In this document: positions 16,945-48,880 of the stretch, piece by piece
How positions within the stretch are numbered: position 1 is the stretch's first letter
How the letters are laid out: each line of letters begins with the position of its first letter
NCBI GenBank assembly: GCA_028717685.1
Contig: JAQUNI010000001.1
Coordinates: 271,451-335,450 of the forward strand
Source: Patescibacteria group bacterium
GTDB taxonomy: Bacteria > Patescibacteriota > JAQUNI01
Direction of reading: 5' to 3'
DNA length: 64,000 nucleotides
Position numbers and translations under genes: made by a program
Notes under the pieces: model-generated
What the model saw: only the letters and a program-made list of their open reading frames with translations
Told to the model about the DNA's origin: nothing
Database searches by the model: none

Positions 16945-16998
16945 ATATCGCATTTTATTAAGATGAAAATATTGAAAAATATTGAGAGGGAATAAATT

Positions 16999-17068
16999 TG
17001 GGGCAGGGCGGGCATGTAATCTTCTGCGTGACAGGCAGACGTATTTCCAACCGAGCTTGGGCTACCGC
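16999..17068 (-). pseudogene. Degenerate tRNA-Asp-like sequence (intact anticodon arm, no T arm)
   Basis: Minus strand TCTGC-CTGTCAC-GCAGA anticodon arm, ends CCCCA, no TTC loop. Confidence 0.55.
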
Positions 17069-44720: not shown

Positions 44721-47297
44721 ATGATTAATAATAAATTTACCGCCCAATTTAAACAAACATTAAAGACCGCTTCTTCTCTAGCGCGCCAGGAAAATAAAGA
44801 CTACATCACGACGGCCCACCTCTTATCCGCTTTAATCCACCAAAAAGGCAGTTTGGCTTGGAAAATTTTGCATTATAAAAAAACTCCAATTCAAACACCA
44901 AACAAAAAAGATGACGCGCTGAATATTCCCGGAGGAAAAGAGGGAAAAAATAGGGAGAAACAATTTAGGCTGGACCATTTCCGCTTCTCCCTAACCGCCA
45001 AAGAGGCTATTGCCAAAGCAGTCGCCCTCGCCTATGAAGGTCAACATTGTTTCGTGGGCACGGAACACCTCCTCTCCGCTCTCGTTAAAATGAAAAGGGG
45101 GCGCGCTTATCTTCTCTTACGAAAAAATAAGTTTGATCTGGATGATTTAGAAAAACACTTGGAACTGCTCCTTGAAAATGCCACGAAATTTTCTCAAATC
45201 ATCCAACCGTTCGCGAGGAACAAAGGGAAAAAATATAAAAAAGATTCAGATAACTTTCTTCGCTGCTTTGGCACGGACTTAAATCAAAAAGCTATTGCCG
45301 GCGGCATTGATCCGGTTATTGGCCGAGAAAAAGAACTTGAAAGAATCATTAATATCTTGGGCCGCCGCAAGAAGAATAATCCCGTTTTAATCGGCGAAGC
45401 GGGCGTCGGGAAAACCGCGATTGCAGAGGGTTTAGCCTCCAGAATCGTCCAGGATAGCGTGCCTCCTTTTTTAAAGAATAAAAGGATTCTGCTTTTAGAT
45501 CTGACGGCTCTTGTCGCAGGCACAATGTTTCGCGGAGAATTTGAATCGCGCCTCAAAAAGATTCTAAACCAAATTGAAGCAGATCCCAACATTATTCTCT
45601 TTATTGACGAATTACATACTGTGATTGGGGCGGGCGGAGCCTCGGGAGGCTTGGATACGGCTAATATTCTGAAACCAGCCCTTGCCCGCGGCTTACTGCG
45701 CTGCATCGGCGCGACCACGCTTGCTGAATACCAAAAACATATTGAAAAGGACCCCGCCCTTGAGCGCAGGTTTCAACCTGTAATAATCAAAGAATCATCT
45801 CCCGAAGAAACCATTGAAGTATTGGAAGGCGTAAGGGAAAACTATGAAAAATATCATCAAATCCACATCACTCCTCCAGCTATTCGCGCGGCGGCTTATT
45901 TAGCGCACCGCTACATTACAGACCGCGCTCTCCCTGACAAAGCGATTGATTTAATTGATGAGGCAGCCTCCCGAGAAAAAATGAAAGTGAAATTACCTCA
46001 AGTAATTTTGAACTTAGAAAAATATGAACGAGAACTCCAAAAAATTCAGGAAGCAAAGCAAGAAGCAGTCAGGGCGGAAAATTACCACGAAGCAAGCATC
46101 TTGAAAAAAGCAGAAGTCAAACTCCAGAAAGAAATTAAGAGAGTCAAGCAAAAAATTGAAAAGCTGCCGCAACTTTTTCGGGGTCAAATCACGGATCAGG
46201 AAATTAAATTGATTGTAAGCGAAATGACGGGAATTCCCTTGGAATCCCTCACCCTCTCTGAAAAAACAAAACTTCTCAATCTTGAGAAAGCATTAAACGC
46301 GAAGGTCGTCGGACAAGAAGAGGCTATAAAAAATATCTGCCAGTGTATCCGGAGAATGAAAGCGGGGCTGGCTAACCCGAACCGCCCTTTAGGTTCTTTT
46401 ATTTTCCTCGGACCTTCGGGGGTGGGCAAAACCTATCTGGCTCAAATTCTAGCACAGGAGATTTTCGGGGACATCCAAAATTTAGTCCGCATTGATATGT
46501 CCGAATTTCATGAATCATTTAATGTTTCACGCTTGGTGGGCGCCCCAGCAGGTTATATTGGCTACGAAGAAGGAGGACATCTCACGGAAAAAATCCGCCA
46601 TCAGCCTTATTCCGTGGTTCTATTTGACGAAATAGAGAAAGCCCATCCTGACGCTTTAAACCTTCTCCTCCAAATTCTGGAAGACGGACAATTAAGCGAC
46701 GCCCAAGGGCGCGCGATTAACTTTAAAAATACTATTGTGGTGATGACTTCCAATATTGGCGCGGCGAAATTGTCCCAAACGCAAAAATGGGGTTTTCAGA
46801 TGGCAACGCAAAATAAAAAAACCAAAAATTTAGAAGAAGAATGGGCGTTAAAATATGAATATCTTAAAAAAGAGATTTTAAAAGAGATTGAAGATAAATT
46901 TAAACCCGAGTTCTTAAACCGCATTGACAAAGTGATTGTTTTCAGATCTTTAGATCTTACCGAACTTGCCAAAATTGCCGCGCTCCAAATTCAAGAGCTG
47001 CAAAAAAGAGTGGAGGACCAAAAAATCTCCTTGAATTTACAGCCCCAAGCGGCTTACTTTTTAGCCGAAAAATCATTTAATCCGGCGCGCGGCGCGCGAC
47101 CTTTGCGCCGCTTAATTTCAGACCTCGTGGAAGATCCCCTCTCGGCATTGATCCTCGCTGAAAAAATTAAGGCGGGTCAAAAAGTATGTGTCAAATTGGA
47201 AAAAGGAGAAGTGGCTTTAAGGATTAATGGAAAGGAATCCCCGCACCAAAGCAAGCTTGGTCCGGGGCAAGCAGGAAGTATGAACGAAGAATTATGA
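44721..47297 (+). CDS. clpC: ATP-dependent Clp protease ATP-binding subunit
   Basis: Clp-N repeats, GEAGVGKT, UVR motif, GPSGVGKT; start trimmed to MINNK. Confidence 0.93.
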   Translation: MINNKFTAQFKQTLKTASSLARQENKDYITTAHLLSALIHQKGSLAWKILHYKKTPIQTPNKKDDALNIPGGKEGKNREKQFRLDHFRFSLTAKEAIAKAVALAYEGQHCFVGTEHLLSALVKMKRGRAYLLLRKNKFDLDDLEKHLELLLENATKFSQIIQPFARNKGKKYKKDSDNFLRCFGTDLNQKAIAGGIDPVIGREKELERIINILGRRKKNNPVLIGEAGVGKTAIAEGLASRIVQDSVPPFLKNKRILLLDLTALVAGTMFRGEFESRLKKILNQIEADPNIILFIDELHTVIGAGGASGGLDTANILKPALARGLLRCIGATTLAEYQKHIEKDPALERRFQPVIIKESSPEETIEVLEGVRENYEKYHQIHITPPAIRAAAYLAHRYITDRALPDKAIDLIDEAASREKMKVKLPQVILNLEKYERELQKIQEAKQEAVRAENYHEASILKKAEVKLQKEIKRVKQKIEKLPQLFRGQITDQEIKLIVSEMTGIPLESLTLSEKTKLLNLEKALNAKVVGQEEAIKNICQCIRRMKAGLANPNRPLGSFIFLGPSGVGKTYLAQILAQEIFGDIQNLVRIDMSEFHESFNVSRLVGAPAGYIGYEEGGHLTEKIRHQPYSVVLFDEIEKAHPDALNLLLQILEDGQLSDAQGRAINFKNTIVVMTSNIGAAKLSQTQKWGFQMATQNKKTKNLEEEWALKYEYLKKEILKEIEDKFKPEFLNRIDKVIVFRSLDLTELAKIAALQIQELQKRVEDQKISLNLQPQAAYFLAEKSFNPARGARPLRRLISDLVEDPLSALILAEKIKAGQKVCVKLEKGEVALRINGKESPHQSKLGPGQAGSMNEEL

Positions 47298-47983
47298 ACG
47301 AGGAATCAGAAGCTAAAAATTGGCTGACTAAAATCGGAAAATTTATAGCCGATTTGATTTTTCCCGTGCAATGTTTGGGCTGCCACCGCGCCGGAAAATG
47401 GCTTTGCGAACGTTGTTATTATCAAATTAAGTCTCACTGCTCCCCCTTTCCTCCTCATTTAAAAAAATCCCCGTTCAATAGATTGATTGCGCCATTTTCT
47501 TATCGCGACCCCCTCATCAAAAAACTGATCAAGGCTTATAAATATCATTTCGTGCAGGATATCAGCGAAATTTTAAGCCGGCTCTTAATTGAATACTTAA
47601 AACCGCTCTTCAGAAACATTGAACCGCAAAATTTTGTTTTAATCCCCGTCCCTTTGCACAAAAGGCGCTTGCGCTTCCGCGGTTTCAATCAAGCCGAACT
47701 CTTAGCCGAACATATAGCGCGGGAATTTAATCTGCCCTTTGCCAAAGATATTTTAATCCGCCGCAGAAACACTACCCCGCAAGCGCAGCTTAAAGAAAAA
47801 GAACGGCGGCAAAACATCCACGAGGCTTTTGCCGCTGTCCGCAATCCCTCTTTAAAAAACAAAATTATTATCCTGCTTGATGATGTGCTGACGAGCGGCG
47901 CGACTTTGGAAGAGTGCGCCCGCGTTTTGCGTCGGACCTGCCGCCCAAAGGCAATTTGGGGATTAGCGGTGGCGAGAGGATAA
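47294..47983 (+). CDS. comF: ComF-family competence protein (zinc ribbon + PRTase)
   Basis: CLGC/CERC, RGFNQAE, LLDDVLTSGATL. Confidence 0.93.
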   Translation: MNEESEAKNWLTKIGKFIADLIFPVQCLGCHRAGKWLCERCYYQIKSHCSPFPPHLKKSPFNRLIAPFSYRDPLIKKLIKAYKYHFVQDISEILSRLLIEYLKPLFRNIEPQNFVLIPVPLHKRRLRFRGFNQAELLAEHIAREFNLPFAKDILIRRRNTTPQAQLKEKERRQNIHEAFAAVRNPSLKNKIIILLDDVLTSGATLEECARVLRRTCRPKAIWGLAVARG

Positions 47984-48163
47984 GGCAGGAAGCAGGAATC
48001 AGGAATCATGAATTAGGAATAAGGAATGAGGAATCAGGAATGAGGAGGTGAGGAAAAATAAAATTCATTATTCATTATTCCCAATTCCCCGCCCGCCATC
48101 GCTACGCTTCAGGCGTTAGCGGGCGCGGTCGGCTTGCGTGGCGGGCGGGCTTATTCCAAGATT

Positions 48164-48371
48164 GGTGGGTTGGCAGAGTGGTTTAATGCACTGGTCCTGC
48201 CCCGCAACAGAACGGAGAGGTGCTAGAGCGGTTTAATAGGACGGTCCTGAAAACCGTTGTCCCTTCAACGGGACCGTGAGTTCGAATCTCACCCTCTCCG
48301 CCCTTGTGCGGGGTCGCGAAAAACCAGAACCCGCTTTTTGCGGGTCGTAGGTTCAAATCCTACACCCACCG
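48164..48371 (+). tRNA. Interrupted outer tRNA-Ser with an about 120-nt insertion in the anticodon loop
   Basis: GGTGGGT/ACCCACC acceptor + G73, Ser-type D loop, CTGGT/ACCAG anticodon stem, long variable arm ACCCGC/GCGGGT, GTAGG-TTCAAAT-CCTAC T arm. Confidence 0.85.
48214..48300 (+). tRNA. tRNA-Ser(TGA), nested inside the outer tRNA
   Basis: GGAGAGG/CCTCTCC + G73; ACGGT-CCTGAAA-ACCGT; long variable arm; GTGAG-TTCGAAT-CTCAC. Confidence 0.92.
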
Positions 48372-48446
48372 CATAACTTAATTTTAAATTTTTAATTCTT
48401 AATTTTTATTCCTCATTCATAATTCCTGATTCATAATTCCCAATAT

Positions 48447-48533
48447 GGAGAGGTGGCTGAGTGGCTGAAAGCAGCACACTGCTAATGTGCTGACCTCGTA
48501 AGGGGTCCGTGGGTTCGAATCCCACCCTCTCCG
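48447..48533 (+). tRNA. tRNA-Ser(GCT)
   Basis: GCACA-CTGCTAA-TGTGC anticodon arm, long variable arm, G73. Confidence 0.96.
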
Positions 48534-48646: not shown

Positions 48647-48880
48647 ATGTACTACGTTTACAGCTTAAAGTGTAAAGGTGGTTATTATATTGGTTGTACC
48701 GATAATCTTAAAGATAGAATTGATAGGCACCGAAAGGGCCAAGTGTCAGCTACAGTAAATAGGCTACCCATAAAATTGGATTTTTATTTTGCAATATCTG
48801 ATAAATATAAAGCATTTGAATTTGAAAAGTATCTGAAGTCTGGTTCTGGGAGGGCTTTTATAAATAGACATATATTGTAG
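48647..48880 (+). CDS. Small GIY-YIG nuclease family protein
   Basis: MYYVYSL...YYIGCTDNLKDRIDRH...EKYLKSGSGR. Confidence 0.9.
   Translation: MYYVYSLKCKGGYYIGCTDNLKDRIDRHRKGQVSATVNRLPIKLDFYFAISDKYKAFEFEKYLKSGSGRAFINRHIL

Follow-up and report, generated by a model that had tools for sequence, protein, structure and literature searches.

A complete tRNA-Ser(UGA) gene nested in the anticodon loop of another serine tRNA gene in a Patescibacteria group bacterium

Islander genomic islands are said to split a tRNA gene, to restore it with a partial copy and to use an integrase. The locus described here lies in a window of 64,000 nt (the whole stretch of DNA analysed) from a Patescibacteria group bacterium and differs from such islands in that a complete, different serine tRNA gene (the cargo) is found inside an older one (the shell), both old halves remain and no tRNA end is duplicated. 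In the tRNA-dependent lysogeny described for actinobacteriophages, which works alike, the target tRNA is not rebuilt and an isotype-matched tRNA is carried by the incoming DNA, as here (Guerrero-Bustamante & Hatfull 2024, PMC10865867). As set out in that account, a whole prophage, a tyrosine integrase and attP/attB sites are involved (PMC10865867), whereas the present insert is of 120 nt, is mostly tRNA, has inverted arms and possesses neither coding sequence nor a duplicated core. Integrase and prophage genes were absent from the insert and the single PF00589 tyrosine recombinase gene of the genome lies approximately 149 kb from the locus; assignment to this class was therefore rejected.

In Lak megaphages a tRNA may be encoded within an intron of tRNA-Thr(TGT) (Devoto et al. 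2019, PMC6784885). In both cases a tRNA gene surrounds a tRNA-like sequence, and relatives have that gene unbroken. As that report presents it, the Lak sequence belongs to a phage, is termed an intron and is nearly invariant between cohorts, and arms, a same-isotype rule and decay do not feature (PMC6784885); the cassette here, in contrast, is chromosomal, with changing cargo and decaying shells. Group I introns interrupt the same loop of bacterial tRNA genes and, according to the account cited, need a ribozyme core together with U(-1) and G(omega) (Williams 2020, bioRxiv 10.1101/2020.01.27.920355), whereas the join that would give Ser(UGA) at the present locus has G and A. Intron gain in archaea has also been described (PMC3293823).

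Rickettsia palindromic elements are likewise short palindromes that insert into genes, including that for tmRNA, with no tRNA cargo or replacement in the description cited (PMC1458961). The SegB protein of phage T4 is a free-standing GIY-YIG homing endonuclease for which a T-loop motif of tRNA genes serves as recognition site in DNA and by which such genes are spread; what moves, through homing between phages, is a multi-gene region, and a hairpin-armed cassette inside a tRNA gene forms no part of that account (PMC2330249). The Ssn enzymes are GIY-YIG nucleases of single-stranded DNA that read a hairpin stem, the loop of which may be extended, and that have an effect on transformation (Chenal et al. 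2025, PMC11893778). Small single-domain GIY-YIG genes beside hairpin repeats are common to both systems, the local nucleases here being candidates only; in the main text of that report the words 'tRNA' and 'Patescibacteria' are absent, and it describes no insertion into tRNA genes and no tRNA cargo (PMC11893778). By analogy, Ssn nucleases may offer a model for placement of the cassette. An element of the REP/RAYT or IS200/IS605 type was rejected, since the Y1 HUH transposase family (PF01797) had no matches in the genome. A literature search, mostly of sources beyond subscription journals, found no description of this cassette; each of its ingredients has a precedent and the combination is without one.

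Anatomy and genomic setting of the nested locus

Both genes are on the forward strand. The 5' half of the outer gene (48164..48199, tRNA positions 1-35) and its 3' half (48320..48371, positions 36-73, with a long variable arm and G73) were called as a separate tRNA from 48164 by ARAGORN with introns allowed, and all stems were intact on inspection (7/7 pairs in the acceptor, 5/5 in the anticodon and 5/5 in the T stem, with the GG of the D loop retained). The complete inner tRNA-Ser(UGA) occupies 48214..48300, has no encoded CCA, scored 51.9 bits against Rfam RF00005 and was recovered in the ARAGORN inventory. These coordinates, the intact outer stems and the complete inner gene had all been reported in a first-pass annotation made from the sequence alone, and each was confirmed. 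No outer tRNA was obtained from 2000 shuffles of the flanks. The nesting of the two tRNA genes is real.

The insert of 120 nt (48200-48319) splits the outer gene at position 35/36 without duplication of the target. It opens with a left arm (48200..48213), made up of a 7-nt arm at 48200-48206 and a spacer that extends the stalk, and after the inner gene it continues with a right arm (48301..48313), in which the matching 7 nt lie at 48307-48313 and complete a perfect 7-bp pair. The six-nucleotide palindrome TCGCGA follows at 48314..48319 and may be the collapsed second hairpin of a double-hairpin element. An inverted repeat clamping the insert had been proposed at 48199-48206 and 48307-48314; the repeat itself stood and its limits did not, as G48199 is an exon base (G35). 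The arm pair places the inner gene on a stalk in the predicted fold, and folding of a 211-nt region gave z = -6.0. Eight joins would produce a 7-nt loop, each by removal of 120 nt, and only that of 48199 to 48320 yields Ser(UGA); joining 48198 to 48319 gives the anticodon UAA, so that both joins of the earlier annotation were reproduced, and a C/G join gives GAA.

Cargo and rejoined outer gene are identical at 59 of 89 positions (66%) and have no long repeat in common, although a core of 13 nt around the anticodon, including C33, is the same in both. A uridine at position 33 is near-universal in tRNAs. Of 86 distinct Ser(UGA) genes two had C33, this cargo being one of them, and apart from the nested pair the only gene of the genome lacking U33 is one tRNA-Met(CAT).

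Error-free contigs from three sequencing runs (X1, X2 and X3) spanned the 5' junction, and run X1 also did so for the 3' junction; the runs belong to one study, X1 may be the source sample, and none of the contigs listed covers the whole insert.

Upstream of the nested gene lies a phosphoribosyltransferase gene (47294..47983, forward strand, PF00156), which we take to be comF-like and which served as the marker of the orthologous locus, its product being 96%, 74% and 50% identical to those of genomes G001, G002 and G003, respectively. A comF-like gene likewise precedes serine tRNAs at loci of named Patescibacteria. Downstream, an intact tRNA-Ser(GCU) identified with Rfam (48447..48533, forward strand) is followed by a hairpin array and a gene for a single-domain GIY-YIG nuclease of 77 aa (48647..48880, forward strand, PF01541 46 bits), a member of the candidate mobiliser family. 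Scans for promoters and terminators gave nothing above shuffled sequence. Tracts of imperfect 7-base repeats flank the nested gene in opposite orientation (47984-48085 and 48375-48445), as they do many tRNAs of this genome, and a GC-rich compound hairpin (48086-48150) directly precedes the outer tRNA.

The host genome is of 1.10 Mb and 100% complete, in a phylum where genomes are mostly of 0.5-1.5 Mb. According to the ARAGORN inventory no tRNA would be missing if the outer gene were left out of account; the set includes a normal gene for Leu(UAA), and as the sole uninterrupted Ser(UGA) gene the inner one was found. By the wobble rules, UCA codons need a serine tRNA with the anticodon UGA. The inner gene is therefore probably essential. 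As the only such gene it bears C33 in place of U33. A full-length RtcB without stops is encoded (G000:C4:6808-8136, PF01139 501 bits), as is a 2'-5' ligase-family protein; RtcB was also present in 10 of 14 control genomes. No match to the tRNA splicing endonuclease PF01974 was found in the complete genome, the same search giving control matches in four archaea.

The locus in relatives and comparable nesting across the phylum

An unbroken allele of the outer gene was found in G003, of the same family, where it directly follows comF and is identical to the rejoined shell at 74 of 89 positions. In G002, of the same genus, the same shell contains a different Ser(UGA) gene. The 5' half of that shell is mutated; its 3' half has a junction similar to that of the host (CGCGA), a double hairpin interrupts its T loop and the acceptor strand is missing. 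An assembly gap and a repeated 5' part make the fine order at this locus less sure. The 3' halves of the host and G002 differ by one compensatory pair in the variable arm and by little else. G001 has the G002-type gene only, without a shell, and the host cargo is 66-71% identical to the outer gene and to the Ser(UGA) genes of the relatives. As judged by comparison of the sequences, the ancestral gene is the outer one and there has been at least one change of cargo, since the gene is unbroken in G003 and the cargoes of G002 and the host differ. In G001 a DNA methyltransferase-like island, recognised by eye, follows tRNA-Ser(UGA) (L035:1430-2974); the site therefore also accepts larger inserts.

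No strain of the same species with an unbroken allele was found among the run contigs or in a ComF scan of metagenomes. The scan yielded one close locus, the DNA of which is that of G001 and so not independent, and five others of approximately 34% identity which were not used. A pattern search for Ser(UGA) 5' halves broken after G35 returned 4 of 401 genomes. Among them is G093, where the 35/36 site is occupied by a double hairpin that has the same first arm and is empty; behind it come a live Ser(UGA) gene and, by eye, a GIY-YIG-like frame. The fourth match, G179, has a different insert ahead of a live gene. Both G002 and G093 possess a full second hairpin ending in GA where the host has TCGCGA. 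In a named Saccharibacteria genome (L083), a right arm and a 3' half of Ser(UGA) type occur after tRNA-Ser(CGA), with no 5' half or left arm evident by eye within 900 nt upstream.

Comparable nesting was surveyed with a detector of two T loops too close for tandem genes, applied to 401 genomes of the phylum that included the host and its three kin. It gave 160 matches in 94 genomes, of which 150 were listed and all of these fetched. Among the matches listed, 116 were a full tRNA with an orphan 3' half, 13 were tandem genes and 21 had no inner tRNA. A 5' half was also present in 57 of the 116 (47 at the default and 10 at a relaxed score) and wholly missing from the remaining 59. The 57 nested cases listed came from 41 of the 401 genomes and covered 14 amino-acid types. 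In the control phylum, that of a Pseudomonas record, 121 genomes gave 21 matches with four orphans and no nested case at the default score, and one implausible nested call at the relaxed score. No comparable shell was detected around 862 tRNAs of loci L045-L260, for which a positive control was run, and a loose nested-serine pattern in named genomes and viral contigs returned, among the matches listed, mostly tandem tRNAs or chance hits.

Shell and cargo were of the same amino-acid type in 50 of the 57 nested cases listed, against a mean of 6 and a maximum of 17 with shuffled labels; the shell type was judged without the anticodon by a classifier that was right on 248 of 304 intact genes, and in two cases from the host genome the cargo stayed in its reference set. 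Rejoining to the loop of the cargo (at least 4 of 5 stem pairs) was possible for 13 of the 57 shells listed. Nine of the 13 keep all other stems, two of these nine being spurious-looking by eye. The other 44 of the shells listed could not be rejoined, and the insertion sites vary. Ranking of joins by ARAGORN score was dropped because the stalk was accepted as an anticodon stem, and the detector itself favours shells with an acceptor and a T arm. At one D-loop site of Arg-CCT a 19-nt arm occurs in four genomes of three families and is identical in three of the four loci, while shells and cargo differ among them, a distribution that points to mobility. Repeated insertion of DNA, not splicing, fits the varied sites, the decay and the shared arms with changing cargo. 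In loci L310 and L332, two types of Ala(CGC) gene exchange roles, each being shell in one genome and cargo in the other, which suggests cyclic replacement.

Within the host genome the earlier annotation had linked the clamp to a family of CCCCGCAC-type palindromes. The family was borne out, the genome having 17 such pairs where shuffled versions had 0, 1 and 3; five of the 17 enclose a tRNA. Of the three members named, that at 47239 agreed with one mismatch, and those at 1721 and 38914 are only degenerate. The first of these (47239-47267) lies in frame at the 3' end of a Clp ATPase gene. The flanks of 46 tRNAs were read by eye, flanks being displayed only where pairing fell below -9 kcal/mol. 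Six further tRNAs stand in arms inside broken shells, with the insert in the anticodon loop for Pro-CGG, in the D loop for Arg-CCT, Arg-TCG and Val-GAC and after position 10 for Val-CAC; the Val-TAC case is messier and its site less clear. Dead copies of Ser-CGA, Ala-TGC and Cys are split by empty double hairpins beside live genes, and fragments of Gly, Pro and Arg genes are split by such hairpins in their T loops. Of the shells of the host genome, that of serine alone has every stem intact. A weak group I intron match (39.7 bits, G000:C1:490490-490626), which contains a hairpin of the arm family, was observed beside a large-subunit-rRNA-like sequence.

Explanations for the nesting

The anatomy of the insert, the ancestral allele, the changing cargo, the recurrence, the agreement in amino acid and the decay of most shells would be accounted for by a hairpin-armed cassette that disrupts an essential tRNA gene while supplying the replacement, that is, by insertion and not splicing (probability about 0.65). 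A mini mobile element that disrupts a tRNA while replacing it was one of two possibilities raised in the first-pass annotation. It gains support from the unbroken allele of G003, the other cargo and decayed shell of G002, the empty double hairpin at the same site in G093 and the many decayed shells across genomes. Under this explanation the resident Ser(UGA) gene is the outer tRNA, between positions 35 and 36 of which an enzyme-free cassette of 120 nt would have entered without target duplication. The cassette would consist of a GC-rich arm, a complete foreign Ser(UGA) gene, the matching arm and the stub of a second hairpin. The resident gene would be destroyed and the cell would survive because the cargo reads the same codon. 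Transcription of the cargo from the resident promoter, with release by RNase P and 3' trimming, would accord with established tRNA biology and would leave the halves of the shell unligated. The unit of arm, tRNA and arm may move as one, either only insertions into a matching gene surviving or only such genes being targeted. Short identity between cargo and target could assist or accompany insertion, as the 13-nt core with C33 might have done in this one case; against guidance by C33 stand its single example and later gene conversion, which could explain the shared base. The shell would still be intact because the insertion was recent.

Several observations tell against a dead shell. It has no damaging change other than C33, the G002 junction (CGCGA) is similar, and genes for RtcB (501 bits) and the 2'-5' ligase-family protein are present. 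The intact shell and the similar junction would allow for one old insertion common to both genomes, the shell having been retained by selection. The compensatory pair that separates the host and G002 halves fits either independent later insertions into a selected gene or a functional shell. SerRS reads the variable arm and acceptor and not the anticodon, and a shell retained because its RNA functions while unspliced or nicked, perhaps as a serine-chargeable decoy, could draw on the intact acceptor, G73 and variable arm, on the compensatory pair and on shells elsewhere that keep acceptor and T arm with a stalk in place of the anticodon arm. We consider such a function distinctly unlikely, as the compensatory change may be older than insertions that occurred independently, the detector has a bias towards shells with acceptor and T arm, and any 5' half is missing from 59 of the 116 cases listed. 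An unlikely course is one of two steps, in which an empty palindrome entered a redundant tRNA gene and a tRNA gene entered its loop later by local recombination. Empty double hairpins at 35/36 with a live gene beside the shell, both in G093 and in the host genome, are what it would predict, but at 66% identity to the shell the cargo is no local copy, one arm accompanies different cargo at one site in three families, and no other Ser(UGA) gene was found in the genome to cover the gap.

The other possibility raised in the first-pass annotation, an intron carrying a tRNA and yielding two tRNAs from one precursor, found no positive support, and it is the intact shell and the encoded RtcB that leave it a slender chance. 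Its halves would be cut precisely at 35/36 by protein and joined by RtcB to give two Ser(UGA) tRNAs. The clean junction is compatible with this, several of the cleanest cases elsewhere likewise fit 35/36, and the Lak phage offers a precedent in the account available (PMC6784885); against it, PF01974 is missing, 44 of the 57 shells listed cannot be rejoined and their sites vary, and the shell is decayed in G002 and lost in G001. The annotation's statement that no bulge-helix-bulge is present also held for the predicted fold, in which, as read by eye, a 4-bp helix between two bulges of 3 nt was not seen at 48199 and 48320. Cuts of RNase P and RNase Z type leave 3'-OH and 5'-phosphate ends with the stalk attached, which RtcB does not join, a further point against splicing. 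Equally slight is the prospect of a mobile cassette that is in addition excised with precision from the RNA, by a protein route not known in bacteria, with cuts at 35/36 and at the right arm and joining by RtcB. Two Ser(UGA) tRNAs would then come from one precursor, and the element would represent a new class of bacterial intron, one that carries a tRNA and is also guided by that cargo to a matching gene. Fusion of two serine tRNAs by the assembler is very improbable: tRNAs do break assembly graphs, the insert is crossed whole by none of the contigs listed and the 3' junction is seen in one run, possibly the source, but the exact 5' junction recurs in three runs, the same layout is found at the G002 locus and in 41 genomes, and inner and outer genes have no long repeat by which to be fused. 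A remnant or active group I intron, with a UAA anticodon on a serine body, is scarcely credible. One report is said to place group I introns at 35/36 in tRNA-Asn and tRNA-Asp genes of Patescibacteria. The U/G join at 48198/48319 does exist, and the only tRNA-Phe gene of the host carries a true group I intron of 249 nt at 33/34 (RF00028, 88.4 bits, G000:C1:363291-363613, minus strand, L001), so that the search was able to see a ribozyme. The nested locus nevertheless gave no RF00028 match even at E values up to 1, in agreement with the annotation, which had judged the insert far too short for such a core. Of the 120 nt, 87 belong to the tRNA; Leu codons would be read as serine by the product, and the genome already has a normal gene for Leu(UAA).

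If insertion of a hairpin-armed cassette is the correct explanation, approximately one in ten of the sampled genomes of the phylum would have exchanged an essential single-copy tRNA gene by means of a minimal selfish cassette that makes good its insertion with a replacement. In bacteria with almost no genes to spare, tRNA genes would thereby be turned over and transferred horizontally by a route that has not been described. Odd tRNA annotations would also be explained, since callers that allow introns give the dead shell and conceal the live gene, and it would give small GIY-YIG genes beside tRNAs a role in hairpin-guided, site-specific insertion free of duplication.

GIY-YIG nucleases and the route of mobilisation

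The genome has nine GIY-YIG matches, one of them in a frame of 580 aa, and five of the eight others lie within approximately 120 nt of a tRNA. Two of these small genes are directly behind a hairpin-split dead tRNA copy. At the Cys and Ser-GGA loci, and likewise in G002, a hairpin-split dead 5' piece is followed by a nuclease gene and a live tRNA, an arrangement that looks like an autonomous form of the element. At nested loci elsewhere, GIY-YIG genes were found in 5 of 57, compared with 7 of 29 among longer loci taken as controls and 0 of 11 where the genes are tandem; the nuclease is not enriched there and would therefore act in trans. A small GIY-YIG or Ssn-like nuclease is accordingly no more than a tentative candidate for the mobilising enzyme, which might place the cassette by acting on its hairpin arms. 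Arrival of the cassette as single-stranded DNA may likewise be suggested, with less confidence, by the position of the locus after a comF-like gene.

No NCBIfam family exceeded its cut-off for three of the GIY-YIG proteins, and a UPF0213 protein was the only clear relative in the PDB (E 4.6e-5). In a search for a free copy of the cassette, none of 48 viral loci matching the arm and the tRNA start held a tRNA, and a viral search with the C33 anticodon arm gave two loci, both without arms. A GIY-YIG gene was also observed after the intron-split tRNA-Phe. Elsewhere in the window, a decayed tRNA-Asp-like copy with a GUC anticodon (16945-17060, minus strand) lies between tRNA-Met and a live tRNA-Asp.
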